From positions 3,993 to 67,992 of the forward strand of contig CAYJLF010000004.1 in NCBI GenBank assembly GCA_964371055.1: DNA of 64,000 nt, written 5' to 3'. Positions 22,650 through 28,704 of the stretch are shown in pieces. Numbering within the stretch: the first letter of the stretch is position 1; every line of letters begins with the position of its first letter. The stretch comes from an uncultured bacterium (GTDB lineage Bacteria; Eisenbacteria; RBG-16-71-46; CAIMUX01). The translations under genes were made by a program, and so were the position numbers. Below the pieces are notes generated by a model. It was not told the origin of the DNA. It ran no database searches and saw only the letters and a list, made by a program, of their open reading frames with translations.

Positions 22650-23888
22650 GTGATCGAGCTCTACATCGCGCGGCGCTACCTCGTTCCCAAGCGGGGACGG
22701 GGTCTCCTCTCGCTCATCACCTGGATCTCGGTCGGCGGGGTCGCCCTCGGGGTGCTGGCGCTCATCGTGGTCCTGGCCGTGATGAACGGCTTCGAGCGTG
22801 AGGTGAAGACGCGGATCATCGGGACCAACGCTCACGTGACCCTTCTCCGGTACGGGGCGCAGGGGATCGAAGGGGTCCCGGAACTCCTGGCGGCGGTCCG
22901 AGGCCATCCCGAGGTGGTCGCGGCCGCTCCGATGGTCTACGGCAAGGCGATGATCAGCGGGCGCGGCGGCGCCGACGGGATCGTGGTCAAGGGAATCGAA
23001 CCGGCGGCGGCGGCGGCGGTGACCGACCTCACCCACTATGTCGAGGGCGGGATGGACCAAGCCGACCTCGAGCCGGGGGAGGGAGATCTCCCCGGGATCA
23101 TCCTCGGCGTGCACGTCGCCGACAACCTGCAGGTGACCCTCGGCGAGCGGGTGCAGTTGATGGCGCCGCAGGTCGGCACGGTCTCGCCTCTCGGTTATGT
23201 CCCGCGCGTTCGCAACTACCGGGTGGTCGGGCTCTTCCGTTCCGGCATGTACGAGTACGATTCCGCGCTCGCGTTCATCGCGCTCAGCCAGGCGCAGGCC
23301 TTCTTCGGACTCGGCGCGCGGGTCTCCGCGGTCGAGGTGAAGGTGCGAGAGATGTACCGGGCGCCGCAGGTGGCGGAGGATCTGGTCGCCCGCGCCGGAG
23401 GTTTCCCCTATCGGAGCCAGGACTGGATCGAGATGAACGCGAATCTCTTCTCTTGGATGCAGACCGAGAAGAGGGTCATGTTCGTCATCCTGGCGCTCAT
23501 CGTGACGATCGCCGCCTTCAACATTCTGGCGGCTTTGATCATGCTGGTGAAGGAGAAGCGCCGCGACATCGGGATCCTCCGCTCGATGGGGGCGACCACG
23601 GCGATGATCCGGGGGATCTTCGTGGCGGAGGGAGCGATCATCGGCGGCACCGGGATGATCCTGGGCGGCGCCGGGGGGCTCCTGCTCTGCTATCTGCTGG
23701 AGCGGTACAAGTTCATCCCGCTCCCCGGCGACATCTACTTCATCGACACCCTTCCGGTGCGGGTCGAGACGCTCGATGTAATTGCGGTGCTGGCGAGCGT
23801 GCTCGTGATCTGCGTTCTGGCGACGCTCTATCCGGCGCGACAGGCGGCGCGTCTGAACCCGGTGGAGGCGATCCGTCATGGTGAATGA
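22650..23888 (+). CDS. lolC: lipoprotein-release ABC transporter permease (LolC/E/F, FtsX family)
   Basis: FtsX-like architecture: four TM segments, a large periplasmic loop, and a 'YPARQAARLNPVEAIR' C-terminus. It is followed by lolD. Confidence 0.8.
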   Translation: MIELYIARRYLVPKRGRGLLSLITWISVGGVALGVLALIVVLAVMNGFEREVKTRIIGTNAHVTLLRYGAQGIEGVPELLAAVRGHPEVVAAAPMVYGKAMISGRGGADGIVVKGIEPAAAAAVTDLTHYVEGGMDQADLEPGEGDLPGIILGVHVADNLQVTLGERVQLMAPQVGTVSPLGYVPRVRNYRVVGLFRSGMYEYDSALAFIALSQAQAFFGLGARVSAVEVKVREMYRAPQVAEDLVARAGGFPYRSQDWIEMNANLFSWMQTEKRVMFVILALIVTIAAFNILAALIMLVKEKRRDIGILRSMGATTAMIRGIFVAEGAIIGGTGMILGGAGGLLLCYLLERYKFIPLPGDIYFIDTLPVRVETLDVIAVLASVLVICVLATLYPARQAARLNPVEAIRHGE

Positions 23889-24615
23889 TGATCTCGTCCC
23901 CTTCCTGCGCGTGCGGGGGGTGCATCGGCGCTTCCACATGGGCGGTTCGGAAATCCACATCCTGCGGGGAGTCGACCTCGACCTGCAGGCGGGTGAGATC
24001 GCGGCCGTCACCGGGACCTCCGGGGCCGGCAAGAGCACGCTGCTCCACATCCTCGGAGCGCTCGACCGGCCGGACGAGGGGTCGGTCCGGGTGGGCGGGG
24101 TCGAGCTGTTCGCGCTTTCGGAGAGTGAGCTGGCGAAGTTCCGCAACCGGAACCTCGGATTCGTGTTTCAGTTCCACCACCTCCTGCCGGAGTTCACCGC
24201 CGAGGAAAACGTCATGATGCCGGGGCTGATCGCCGGGCTCGCTCCCTCCCGGGCGCGGGAGCGGGCGCGGAACCTGCTCGAGGAGGTCGGGCTCGGCGAC
24301 CGCGCCGAGCACAAGCCGGACGAGCTTTCGGGCGGGGAACAGCAGCGGGTCGCCCTCGCGCGCGGGCTGTACGGCGAACCCCGTCTGATCCTGGCCGACG
24401 AGCCGACCGGAAACCTGGATCCAGAGACCGCCCGGGGCCTGCACGAGCTGATGTATACTCTGGCGCGGAAGCACCGCCAGAGCTGGGTCGTGGTCACGCA
24501 CAACCCACAGCTGGCCGCACGGGCCGATCGATGGTTGCGGCTGGACGAAGGGGTGCTGCGAACGGCGCGGGAGGGATCCGCGCCGGGGATCGAAGGGATC
24601 GAGGGAACCGCATGA
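23878..24615 (+). CDS. lolD: lipoprotein-release ABC transporter ATP-binding protein
   Basis: Walker A 'GTSGAGKST', ABC signature 'LSGGEQQRVALAR' and Walker B 'ILADEPTGNLD'. Confidence 0.85.
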   Translation: MVNDDLVPFLRVRGVHRRFHMGGSEIHILRGVDLDLQAGEIAAVTGTSGAGKSTLLHILGALDRPDEGSVRVGGVELFALSESELAKFRNRNLGFVFQFHHLLPEFTAEENVMMPGLIAGLAPSRARERARNLLEEVGLGDRAEHKPDELSGGEQQRVALARGLYGEPRLILADEPTGNLDPETARGLHELMYTLARKHRQSWVVVTHNPQLAARADRWLRLDEGVLRTAREGSAPGIEGIEGTA

Positions 24616-26200: not shown

Positions 26201-26256
26201 CGCGCCGGCCGGCCGGCAGAGCCGTGAGGGCCCGAACGGGCGGAGGAAAGGGAACG

Positions 26257-28704
26257 ATGCACGACAAGTTTACCGAGAGGGTTCGCAAGGTCATTTTCCT
26301 CGCGCGCGAGGAGGCGGCCCGGCTGCAACACGGCTCGATCGGCACCGAGCACCTGCTGCTCGGACTCCTCCGCGAGGGGGAGGGAATCGCGGCGACGGTC
26401 CTTTCCAATCTCGGCCTCGACCTGGAGGCGATCCGCCACGCCGTCGAGAACATGGTCGCCCAGGCGGGGGGCACACTCACCATCGGGGAGATCCCGTTCA
26501 CGAGCAACGCCAAGCGCGTGCTCGAGCTCTCGGTCGACGAGGCCCGCCAGCTGGGGCACAACTACGTCGGCACCGAGCACCTGCTGCTCGGCCTCATTCG
26601 GGAAGGCGAGGGGGTGGCCGCCAAGGTCCTGATGGACATGGGCGTCGATCGGAAGAAGGTGCGGGACGAGACGCTGAAGCTGCTCGGCGGGCATGCGCAG
26701 CCGAGCGCCCAGACGGAGGGGGAGGAGAAGACCGACACGCCCTCGTTGAACCAGTTCGGGCGCGATCTCACGCAGCTGGCGCGGGAGGGGAAGCTCGATC
26801 CCACCTTCGGACGCGAGGGGGAGATCGAGCGCGTGATCCAGATCCTCTGCCGGCGCAAGAAGAACAATCCGATCCTGATCGGGGAGCCGGGGGTCGGCAA
26901 GACCGCGATCGTCGAGGGGCTGGCGTCGCGGATCGTGGAGGGGAAAGTGCCGGAACTCCTGCGCAACCATCGCCTCATCACCCTCGACCTCGCGAGCGTG
27001 GTGGCCGGCACCAAGTACCGCGGGCAGTTCGAGGAGCGGTTGAAGACGATCATGAACGAGATCCGTGAGGCCCCCGACACGATCATCTTCATCGACGAAC
27101 TCCATACGATCGTCGGCGCCGGCGGGGCGGAGGGCGCGATCGACGCCTCCAACATGCTCAAGCCGGCCCTGGCCCGCGGCGAGCTGCAGTGCATCGGCGC
27201 GACGACCCTCGATGAGTACCGCAAGTACATCGAGAAGGATGGCGCCCTCGAGCGTCGCTTCCAGATGGTGCTGGTCGAGCCTCCGACCGTGGCCGAGGCG
27301 ATCCTCATCCTGAAGGGACTCCGCGACAAGTACGAGGCGCATCACCGCGTGCAGTACACCGACGTAGCGCTGGAACAGGCCGTGCGCCTCTCGGAGCGAT
27401 TCATCACCGATCGCCATCTTCCCGACAAGGCGATCGACGTCATCGACGAGGCCGGAGCCCGCGCGCGCCTGTCGATGTCGACCGTCCCGAACGAACTCCG
27501 CACGCTCGACCGGGAGATCGACAAGGTCGCGGCGGAGAAGGAGTCGGCCATCCGCGCGCAGGAGTTCGAGAAGGCGGCGGCCTACCGGGACCGGGAGAAG
27601 GAGCTCCGCCAGGAGTACTACCGCCTGAAGAAGGAGTGGAGCGAGAACAAGAACGTCAAGCGGGCGGAGGTCGGGGAAGAGGACATCGCGCTCATCATCT
27701 CGAGCATGACGAAGATCCCGGTGACCAAGCTGGAGGAGCGGGAGCAGGCGAAGCTGGTGCGGATGGAGGAGGAACTGGGGCGTTTCATCGTCGGCCAGGA
27801 AGAGGCGGTGACCGCGATCGCGAAGGCGATCCGGCGCAATCGCGCCGGGTTGCGCGACCCGCGTCGTCCGATCGGCACCTTCGTCTTCCTCGGACCGACC
27901 GGAGTCGGCAAGACGGAGCTGGCGCGCGTCATCGCGAACTTCCTCTTCGGAGATCCCGAGTCCCTGATCCGCGTCGACATGAGCGAGTTCATGGAGAAGT
28001 TCGCGGTCAGCCGCCTCGTCGGCGCGCCTCCCGGCTATGTCGGGTACGAGGAGGGCGGACAGCTCACGGAACGGGTGCGGCGCAAGCCCTACTCCGTGGT
28101 GCTGCTGGACGAGATCGAGAAGGCGCATCCGGATGTCTTCAATATCCTGCTCCAGGTGCTGGAGGACGGCCAGCTGACCGACTCCCTGAAGCGGAAGGTC
28201 AACTTTAAGAACACGGTGCTGATCATGACGAGCAACATCGGCGCGCGCCTGATCCGAGGCCAGGGGAAGATGGGATTCCAGCGGCCGGACGCCGAGGTCA
28301 GCTACACCCAGATGAAGAACACGGTGATGGATGAGGTGCGCAAGGTCTTCAATCCCGAATTCCTGAACCGGCTCGACGAGATCATCGTCTTCCGGCCGCT
28401 GGACCGCGGCCACATGGAGAAGATCGTCGACATCCTCTTAGACCAGCTGCGCGACCGTCTGAAGGAACACCACATGACGCTGACCCTCACGCCCGGCGCG
28501 CTGGCGCTCCTGTTGGAGAAGGGTTTCGACCCGGCGCTGGGGGCGCGGCCGCTGCGGCGTTCGATCCAGCGGTTGATCGAGGACCCGCTGGCCGACGCGC
28601 TGCTGCGGGGGAGGGTGCATGCGGGAAGCGAGATCCGCATCACCAAGCGGGGCGACGAACTGGCGATCGGCGAGGCTCTCGCGGATACGCCGTCGAAGGA
28701 GTAG
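26257..28704 (+). CDS. clpC: ATP-dependent Clp protease ATP-binding subunit ClpC
   Basis: Duplicated Clp_N repeats ('GTEHLLLGL' x2), two AAA+ modules ('GEPGVGKT', 'GPTGVGKT') and a UVR linker motif. 815 aa. GGAGGAAAGGG RBS. Confidence 0.9.

Follow-up and report, generated by a model that had tools for sequence, protein, structure and literature searches.

A CtsR-less McsA/McsB/ClpC locus between lolCD and bamA in an Eisenbacteria genome and in related diderm lineages

Introduction

The degradation by ClpC-ClpP of proteins tagged with phospho-arginine (pArg) is established in Firmicutes, and the literature treats pArg/ClpC tagging as a Gram-positive speciality under CtsR. In Proteobacteria such as E. 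coli, the outer-membrane genes bamA, skp, lpxD, fabZ, lpxA and lpxB form a conserved cluster, of which, to our knowledge, no Clp or McsB genes are members. In the diderm Chlamydia trachomatis, ClpC-ClpP degrades only arginine-phosphorylated casein in vitro (PMC10128030), and the chlamydial mcsAB genes are unlinked from clpC, flanked by tRNA genes and proposed to be horizontally acquired (PMC10128030). For Gram-negative bacteria, McsAB receives a passing mention ("some Proteobacteria") with the remark that its activity has never been identified (PMC11046695). Here, we analyze a lolC-lolD-mcsA-mcsB-clpC array at positions 22650-28704 of a stretch of 64,000 nucleotides (hereafter the window) from an uncultured bacterium of the Eisenbacteria (assembly GCA_964371055.1, contig CAYJLF010000004.1, positions 3,993 to 67,992 of the forward strand), in which the three genes of the pArg module lie between genes for lipoprotein sorting and genes for outer-membrane biogenesis.

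A preliminary description of this array, made from the sequence without database searches, had presented a McsA/McsB/ClpC module in a diderm. The identification is borne out by family matches and motifs, and the diderm nature of the organism by BamA, Skp, Lpx proteins, KdtA and Lnt; novelty for a pArg/ClpC system in a diderm cannot be claimed, given the precedent of the C. trachomatis ClpC (PMC10128030).

Results

Organization of the array

All five genes are on the forward strand. The first, lolC (22650..23888, GTG start), encodes a LolC/E-type lipoprotein-release ABC permease of 412 amino acids (aa) with MacB_PCD and FtsX domains that scores above the TIGR02212 cutoff (370.8 vs 362.45 bits), and lolD (23878..24615, ATG start) encodes an ABC ATPase of 245 aa whose top NCBIfam match is the LolD model TIGR02211 at 273.7 bits, below the cutoff of 307.75. 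These genes are followed by mcsA (24612..25133), which encodes a zinc-finger activator of McsB of 173 aa with a UVR domain (NF053706, 144.4 bits), and by mcsB (25130..26200, TTG start), which by homology encodes a protein arginine kinase of 356 aa with a PF00217 domain (NF002194, 385.1 bits vs a cutoff of 385). After a spacer of 56 nt (26201..26256) that carries the strong Shine-Dalgarno sequence GGAGGAAAGGG, clpC (26257..28704) encodes a class I AAA+ unfoldase of 815 aa with two Clp_N repeats, two AAA+ modules and, as previously described, a UVR linker at residues 418-452.

At the junctions, the stop codon of lolC (23886-23888) lies beyond the ATG of lolD at 23878, which gives an overlap of 11 nt. 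The TGA of lolD (24613-24615) and the ATG of mcsA (24612) form an ATGA overlap, and the TGA of mcsA (25131-25133) and the TTG of mcsB (25130) form a TTGA overlap; both are found in the sequence as the preliminary description had given them. Its view of the five genes as one translationally coupled array holds for lolC-lolD-mcsA-mcsB, all joined by overlaps, and does not extend to clpC, which has a 56-nt gap and its own Shine-Dalgarno sequence in front of it and thus forms the sole non-overlapped junction within 22650-28704.

The same start codons are chosen in gene calls on identical ENA metagenome contigs, and the array recurs on at least four metagenome contigs, besides 15 further similar places. 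An assembly artefact is ruled out by the presence of the same array on many independent contigs. On one near-identical metagenome contig (L002 10127-12648), clpC is split into two open reading frames (ORFs) of 286 and 568 aa, which could represent a frameshift, a strain-level pseudogene or an assembly error. The GC content is 70% throughout the window, and the closest named relatives of its McsB come from metagenome-assembled genomes (MAGs) labelled Candidatus Eisenbacteria. The proteins themselves are already known, because public annotation calls these homologues "protein arginine kinase".

Functional residues of McsB, McsA and ClpC

In the Pfam analysis of McsB, the PF00217 domain is present and the N-terminal phosphagen-kinase domain PF02807 is not found, and the precomputed annotation lists the C-terminal dimerisation domain PF27454 (McsB_C). 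The protein aligns end to end with the Geobacillus McsB structure 6FH1 (residues 14-354 of that structure; E = 6.5e-84), as it does with the B. subtilis McsB structures 8WTB and 6TV6, and shares 43% identity with B. subtilis McsB across 329 aligned positions, whereas true phosphagen/arginine kinases align over the catalytic core only, with E values of approximately 1e-24. The catalytic residues are the NEEDH motif at 118-122, Cys166 in CPTNTGTGMRAS (CPTNTGTGMRAS), which is the intact cysteine signature noted previously, and Glu211. Across 81 diderm McsB sequences, the NEEDH motif, the catalytic cysteine and Glu212 (alignment numbering) are near-invariant, the exceptions being a single substitution in the N column and another in the H column, and this indicates purifying selection on the kinase activity. 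A phosphagen kinase identity is rejected on the basis of the domain make-up, the structure alignments and these near-invariant catalytic residues. One McsB homologue encountered in the comparison, P0036, is a protein of 552 aa with a UVR domain, PF00217 and McsB_C, and could be a McsA-McsB fusion or the product of a missed stop codon.

The pArg receptor site of B. subtilis McsB consists of S285, R337, D338 and R341 (PMC8370763). The corresponding residues of the window McsB are S284, R336, N337 and R340, so that asparagine replaces the aspartate D338. Many Gemmatimonadota have a degenerate form of this site (S285 to F; R337 to A, S or L), but it is intact in the Eisenbacteria and in lineages of the Planctomycetes-Verrucomicrobia-Chlamydiae (PVC) group.

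McsA contains the four CxxC pairs that were recognized previously, at residues 3 (CQNC), 28 (CEAC), 72 (CPGC) and 90 (CEGC), and a UVR/coiled-coil region at residues 134-162; residues 1-163 align with B. subtilis McsA (8WTB_B) with E = 1.8e-27, and NF053706 is its single NCBIfam match, with full-length coverage. The N-terminal domain of ClpC aligns with those of M. tuberculosis ClpC1 and B. subtilis ClpC with E values of approximately 1e-48 and is about as near to each as those two are to one another. Both GTEH motifs (GTEH29 and GTEH105) are present; E32 and E106 of ClpC are reported to be the pArg-binding residues (Trentini et al. 2016). The Walker A motifs are at residues 209 and 546 and the Walker B motifs at 280 and 618, the C-terminal half is collinear with residues 401-800 of B. 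subtilis ClpC (E = 3.8e-144), and the MGF672 loop aligns with the VGF loop by which B. subtilis ClpC docks to ClpP. As judged by sequence comparison, the residues for the canonical pArg mechanism are all present at the locus.

Absence of CtsR and its operator

The B. subtilis CtsR sequence, validated with Pfam (PF05848, 125.6 bits; PF17727, 89.8 bits), was used as the probe for CtsR. No CtsR gene is detected by tblastn in the 64-kb window at E values up to 10, which extends to the whole window the previous observation that ctsR is missing from the approximately 2 kb directly upstream (purF, lolC and lolD), nor does the probe find one at distances of up to 10 kb from mcsB in 80 further diderm species. 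Over the window and 86 loci (1.42 Mb), the tblastn search returns only noise (E >= 3.6).

The preliminary description had proposed a search for a CtsR box or another heat-shock operator. The CtsR operator pattern (A/GGTCAAANANA/GGTCAAA) has no match in the window at up to three mismatches, no CIRCE element is present in the window, and none of the diderm arrays has a CtsR box upstream in a local scan with up to one mismatch. The pattern does recover its positive controls, with perfect matches approximately 100 bp ahead of ctsR in the Bacillus and Geobacillus loci. One Planctomycetota MAG also has a perfect match (L017 6229-6245), but this lies within the coding region of mcsB and is probably due to chance. 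No terminator-like sites are found on the forward strand between 15 and 33 kb, a weak test at 70% GC, and no promoter-like sites are found on the forward strand inside the array or in the mcsB-clpC spacer, a scan of low power at 70% GC and for a non-sigma-70 consensus. Rfam (gathering thresholds) and tRNA searches find nothing inside the array. The lack of ctsR and of its operator in the window indicates that expression is probably not under CtsR or heat-shock control.

Conservation of the gene order in diderm lineages

Loci were collected from one-genome-per-species GTDB contigs by a scan with an alignment of 12 McsB homologues, followed by tblastn with the window proteins and refinement of the ORFs; the survey comprises the best 80 species by closeness of their McsB to that of the window. 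The sampled groups, all of them diderm lineages, are Eisenbacteria, Gemmatimonadota, Latescibacterota, Zixibacteria, Ignavibacteria, Omnitrophota, Verrucomicrobiota, Planctomycetota and one MAG labelled Binatia. The first five are referred to here as the Fibrobacteres-Chlorobi-Bacteroidetes (FCB) group, and the counts for this group are of informative species.

In the FCB group, lolD lies directly upstream of mcsA in 28/28 species, clpC comes next in 24/24, and bamA follows clpC in 18/20, the two loci without bamA in this position both being from Ignavibacteria. The distance between lolD and mcsA ranges from -51 to +267 bp with a median of approximately 3, and many values are 0, -1 or -4. The mcsB-clpC spacer is mostly 3-120 nt (226 nt in the Ignavibacteria locus L082), with two gap estimates that are unreliable. 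In one Zixibacteria locus (L061), a radical-SAM/SPASM gene (2082-3107) lies between lolC and lolD, and lolD and mcsA are still adjacent with a 10-bp gap.

In the Omnitrophota-like species, lolD is upstream of mcsA with one gene inserted in 8/8, and clpC comes next in 7/7. The same arrangement with one inserted gene occurs in four of six Verrucomicrobiota, in which clpC comes next in 6/6. A bamA gene directly after clpC is not seen in either group; in one Verrucomicrobiota locus (L080), bamA lies approximately 2.4 kb downstream of clpC. The inserted gene in both groups encodes a class IV aminotransferase (PF01063; L064 8612-9481, and also in L024, L036, L060, L067, L072, L074-L077, L081 and L084). 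A gene of the Aminotran_4 family (L090 1658-2542; pabC by position) is also found four genes upstream of lysS in Geobacillus.

In Planctomycetota, lolD is upstream of mcsA in 0/29 species, clpC comes next in 1/23, and bamA after clpC is not seen; this phylum has lost the lolD-mcsA link. Two Planctomycetota loci of the Gemmataceae type (L037 9009-10005 and L083 8867-9989) carry two mcsA genes in tandem upstream of mcsB.

A neighbour-joining tree of McsB, rooted on two Bacillaceae sequences, contains FCB and PVC clades that mirror the taxonomy, from which it follows that the linkage is most simply ancestral and vertically inherited. A recent transfer from Firmicutes is rejected, since the diderm McsBs form their own taxonomy-congruent clades.

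A backbone shared with Firmicutes

The conservation extends beyond lolCD. In most FCB-group and Omnitrophota loci, lysS is directly upstream of lolC, a position that is held by purF in the window's own sublineage. The genes mlaE-mlaF-mlaD come after clpC in Omnitrophota and some Verrucomicrobiota, with radA after mlaEFD in two Omnitrophota loci (L060 and L064) and htpX upstream of lysS in L060, L064 and L084. The order in one of these Omnitrophota loci (L064 5196-17053) is lysS-lolC-lolD-ilvE-mcsA-mcsB-clpC-mlaE-mlaF-mlaD-radA, and that in Geobacillus (L090 5548-14972) is lysS-[8 tRNAs]-ctsR-mcsA-mcsB-clpC-radA. A backbone of lysS...mcsA-mcsB-clpC...radA is therefore common to the monoderm Bacillaceae and the diderm PVC/FCB lineages, and the place of ctsR in Bacillaceae is taken in the diderms by lolCD, with outer-membrane genes downstream. 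These findings suggest that lysS...mcsAB-clpC...radA is a very old synteny backbone.

The surrounding genes of the window

The array lies within a run of 22 forward-strand genes, from htrA (14474) to an ArsB-like gene (41990), in which neighbouring genes are never more than 115 bp apart; the tight packing thus characterizes the entire neighbourhood and is not confined to lolD-mcsA. Upstream of lolC, the run consists of htrA/degP, purB, purL, purQ, a gene for a 235-aa protein and purF (14474..22640; purF TIGR01134, 486 bits). The 235-aa ORF between purQ and purF (20440-21147, forward strand) has no Pfam match and is suspected, from its position and a "V.V..K....DP...." stretch, to encode a divergent or duplicated PurS-like protein.

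Downstream, bamA (28712..31213, forward strand) begins 7 nt past the clpC stop codon and scores 437 bits against TIGR03303 (cutoff 297). It is followed on the same strand by skp/ompH for a periplasmic chaperone (31224..31787; PF03938 OmpH; NF008047 Skp, E = 1.3e-12) and, according to the Pfam annotation of an identical ENA contig, by lpxD, lpxC-fabZ, lpxA, a GFO/Idh/MocA oxidoreductase gene, lpxB, a DUF374 gene, kdtA, lpxK and an ArsB/CitMHS permease gene (31903..41990). LpxC and FabZ are fused in a protein of 438 aa (32976-34292, forward strand), and this fusion is also kept in related FCB-group loci. The gene for the apolipoprotein N-acyltransferase Lnt, which acts in lipoprotein maturation, lies approximately 19 kb upstream of lolC (1996-3648, forward strand). 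The diderm markers of the window are BamA, Skp, LpxD, LpxC-FabZ, LpxA, LpxB, LpxK, KdtA and Lnt.

Among the few minus-strand genes is one for a 1723-aa protein with fn3 repeats (8984-14155). The only RNA genes that the searches returned are four dispersed tRNA genes (Gly-CCC, Pro-GGG, Pro-CGG and Arg-CCT) far downstream, within 48879-57297; this region and a XerC/D-type tyrosine recombinase gene (62467-63396) adjoin uvrC and murJ. Within the window, the block is not bordered by any integrase, transposase or repeat; the single integrase-family gene (62467-63396) is 34 kb away.

Discussion

The locus probably represents a genuine and vertically inherited McsA/McsB/ClpC module that functions in pArg quality control. 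Its setting, an old housekeeping and envelope array without CtsR, is unusual but typical of the clade, and expression is probably by read-through. By homology, the zinc-finger protein McsA would activate McsB, which would phosphorylate arginines of cytosolic proteins that are aberrant or regulatory; pArg would be bound by the ClpC N-domain at its two GTEH sites, and ClpC would unfold the substrate and feed it to ClpP via the MGF loop. The gene anatomy suggests that translation of mcsA and mcsB is coupled to that of lolD, and this coupling, together with the lack of CtsR and its operator, makes read-through expression probable. The module would then be made from transcripts shared with LolCD and BamA-Skp-Lpx, probably in a constitutive or growth-rate-linked manner, and control would be exerted at the protein level, by McsA, autophosphorylation or a phosphatase, rather than by heat-shock derepression of the CtsR type. 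The gene orders in the survey are most simply explained if the sampled FCB and PVC lineages inherited lysS-lolCD-mcsAB-clpC, followed by outer-membrane genes, from their common ancestor.

Several observations weigh against this reading. Neither a ClpP gene nor one for a pArg phosphatase of the YwlE type (low-molecular-weight protein tyrosine phosphatase, LMW-PTP) is found within the 64-kb window, and the YwlE signature C-x-G-N-x-(C/S)-R-S occurs in no frame of the window or of 90 loci. McsB barely attains the NF002194 cutoff (385.1 vs 385) and is under that of the Bacilli-specific model NF053707 (374 vs 500), and McsA, at 144.4 bits, is under the cutoff of 210 of NF053706, a model built on Bacilli. 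In B. subtilis McsB, autophosphorylated Arg194 stabilises a closed octamer (PMC8370763); the corresponding residue is Lys193 in the window McsB and a lysine in most diderm McsBs (25/31 FCB-group and 33/35 Planctomycetota sequences), and the regulation of the kinase may therefore differ. Arg194 is a regulatory trait of the Bacillus enzyme and no criterion for membership of the McsB family, and the oligomeric gating of McsB may differ among lineages. Co-transcription is read from gene spacing only, and in a genome of 70% GC from an FCB-type phylum, scans for sigma-70 promoters and terminators have little power. Finally, an adjacency of lolD and mcsA that is this deep is unusual for functionally unrelated genes and leaves room for a direct functional link.

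With such a link, McsAB-ClpC in diderms of the FCB and PVC groups would serve outer-membrane biogenesis as its proteolytic arm in the cytoplasm, and selection for co-regulation would keep the module between lolCD and bamA-skp-lpx or mlaEFD. Possible targets would be unexported precursors of lipoproteins or outer-membrane proteins, or a rate-limiting envelope enzyme such as LpxC, the level of which is set in E. coli by FtsH. We regard this as unlikely. Gene order kept at such depth is usually read as functional association: lolD adjoins mcsA in all 28 FCB-group species, from five phylum-level groups and often with overlaps of -1 or -4, and the downstream flank varies yet stays with the outer membrane, being bamA-skp-lpxD-lpxC/fabZ-lpxA in the FCB group and mlaE-mlaF-mlaD in Omnitrophota and Verrucomicrobiota. 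However, lysS, which has no envelope role, matches lolCD in its conservation within the block; in PVC lineages, lolD and mcsA are separated by a class IV aminotransferase gene; mcsAB exists without the link in Planctomycetota (0/29) and Chlamydia (PMC10128030); and the monoderm Bacillaceae retain the mcsAB-clpC backbone without any outer membrane. The coupling to lipoprotein sorting that was proposed previously is physical, as shown by the overlapping stop and start codons, and a specific functional coupling is weakened by the presence of lysS in the same block, by the aminotransferase insert and by a 27-kb neighbourhood that is equally tightly packed throughout. A more far-reaching version, which we consider quite unlikely, holds that McsAB-ClpC is an ancestral part of an outer-membrane supra-operon (lysS-lolCD-mcsAB-clpC-bamA/skp/lpx or mla), as its arm for cytoplasmic quality control and regulated proteolysis, and that the Gram-positive ctsR-mcsA-mcsB-clpC-radA is the remnant left after loss of the outer membrane, with ctsR recruited at the former place of lolCD. 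If true, pArg proteolysis and outer-membrane biogenesis would be functionally linked in a way that is new, and the locus would also be a genomic fossil informative about the diderm-to-monoderm transition.

The two remaining explanations concern the identity and the origin of the module. The McsB homologue could be a phosphagen kinase of free arginine or an inactive ClpC adaptor, in which case the array would not carry out pArg tagging: its catalytic domain belongs to the ATP:guanido phosphotransferase family PF00217, it reaches the NCBIfam cutoff marginally, and the activity of a Gram-negative McsAB homologue "has never been identified" (PMC11046695). This is extremely improbable given the missing N-terminal phosphagen-kinase domain and the McsB-specific PF27454, the end-to-end alignment with McsB structures (E = 6.5e-84) as opposed to the core-only alignment with arginine kinases (E = 1e-24), the near-invariance of the catalytic residues in the 81 diderm homologues, the translationally coupled cognate McsA with both zinc sites, and the intact pArg-reading GTEH motifs of ClpC. 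A horizontal spread of a lolCD-mcsAB-clpC cassette between phyla as a mobile unit would agree with the acquisition of mcsAB that was proposed for Chlamydia in view of the flanking tRNAs (PMC10128030), and the tree that bears on it is a neighbour-joining tree of one protein only. It is very unlikely nonetheless, as Eisenbacteria, Gemmatimonadota, Omnitrophota, Verrucomicrobiota and Planctomycetota are each cohesive in that tree, the identities of LolC, LolD, ClpC and BamA to those of the window drop together with taxonomic distance, flanking housekeeping genes (lysS, lpx, mla, radA) are conserved too, and the window shows no integrase, transposase or repeat at the borders of the block.

With the functional McsA/McsB/ClpC module as the preferred reading, seven or more diderm lineages of phylum level appear to have McsAB-ClpC as a conserved core locus that lacks CtsR, always in one setting of genes for lipoprotein sorting, the beta-barrel assembly machinery, lipopolysaccharide and Mla. 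Among environmental diderm phyla, arginine phosphorylation may be widely used as a housekeeping signal for quality control, and outer-membrane biogenesis may be a process with which the pArg system is co-regulated or on which it acts. The lysS...mcsAB-clpC...radA backbone could be used as a synteny marker to relate the Firmicute locus to diderm ancestors. If the linkage is inherited gene order only, the finding shrinks to a note in comparative genomics. In the searchable open literature, nothing relevant was found on a linkage of McsB to LolD or BamA or on McsB in diderms or Gemmatimonadetes, and the conserved CtsR-less lolCD-mcsAB-clpC-bamA order and its relation to the Firmicute operon appear to be undescribed there. 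The preliminary description had called the arrangement undescribed, which stands within that literature; the arrangement is no peculiarity of this genome, as it is present throughout the FCB group (28/28) and, with the insert, in Omnitrophota and Verrucomicrobiota. It had also stated that a lolD-mcsA junction both widespread and already described in related phyla would tell against it; the junction is widespread in related phyla, but no description was found. Overall, its observation is confirmed and its interpretation is partly supported.

Compared with ctsR-mcsA-mcsB-clpC of Bacillaceae, the three proteins of the window are the same, as are their order and domain architecture; mcsA overlaps mcsB in both loci, and the catalytic motifs, zinc sites, pArg receptor site, GTEH motifs of ClpC and ClpP loop are conserved. 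Additionally, lysS is upstream in Geobacillus and directly upstream of lolC in distant relatives of the window. The differences are that the window lacks ctsR and its operator and has lolC-lolD in the place of ctsR, that bamA-skp-lpx follows clpC instead of radA-disA, and that a lysine takes the place of B. subtilis Arg194 in McsB. Chlamydia trachomatis (PMC10128030, PMC11708050) is likewise a diderm, of the PVC group, with McsA, McsB and a ClpC with conserved pArg-recognition residues, and no CtsR is reported for it; its mcsAB lies apart from clpC, whereas the three genes are contiguous in the window, between lolCD and bamA. The sampled Planctomycetota, with mcsA-mcsB alone, are in the same unlinked state as Chlamydia. 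The outer-membrane cluster of Proteobacteria is matched by bamA-skp-lpxD-(lpxC)fabZ-lpxA-...-lpxB directly downstream of the window clpC on the same strand, whereas the FCB version of the cluster extends upstream with clpC, mcsB, mcsA, lolD, lolC and usually lysS.

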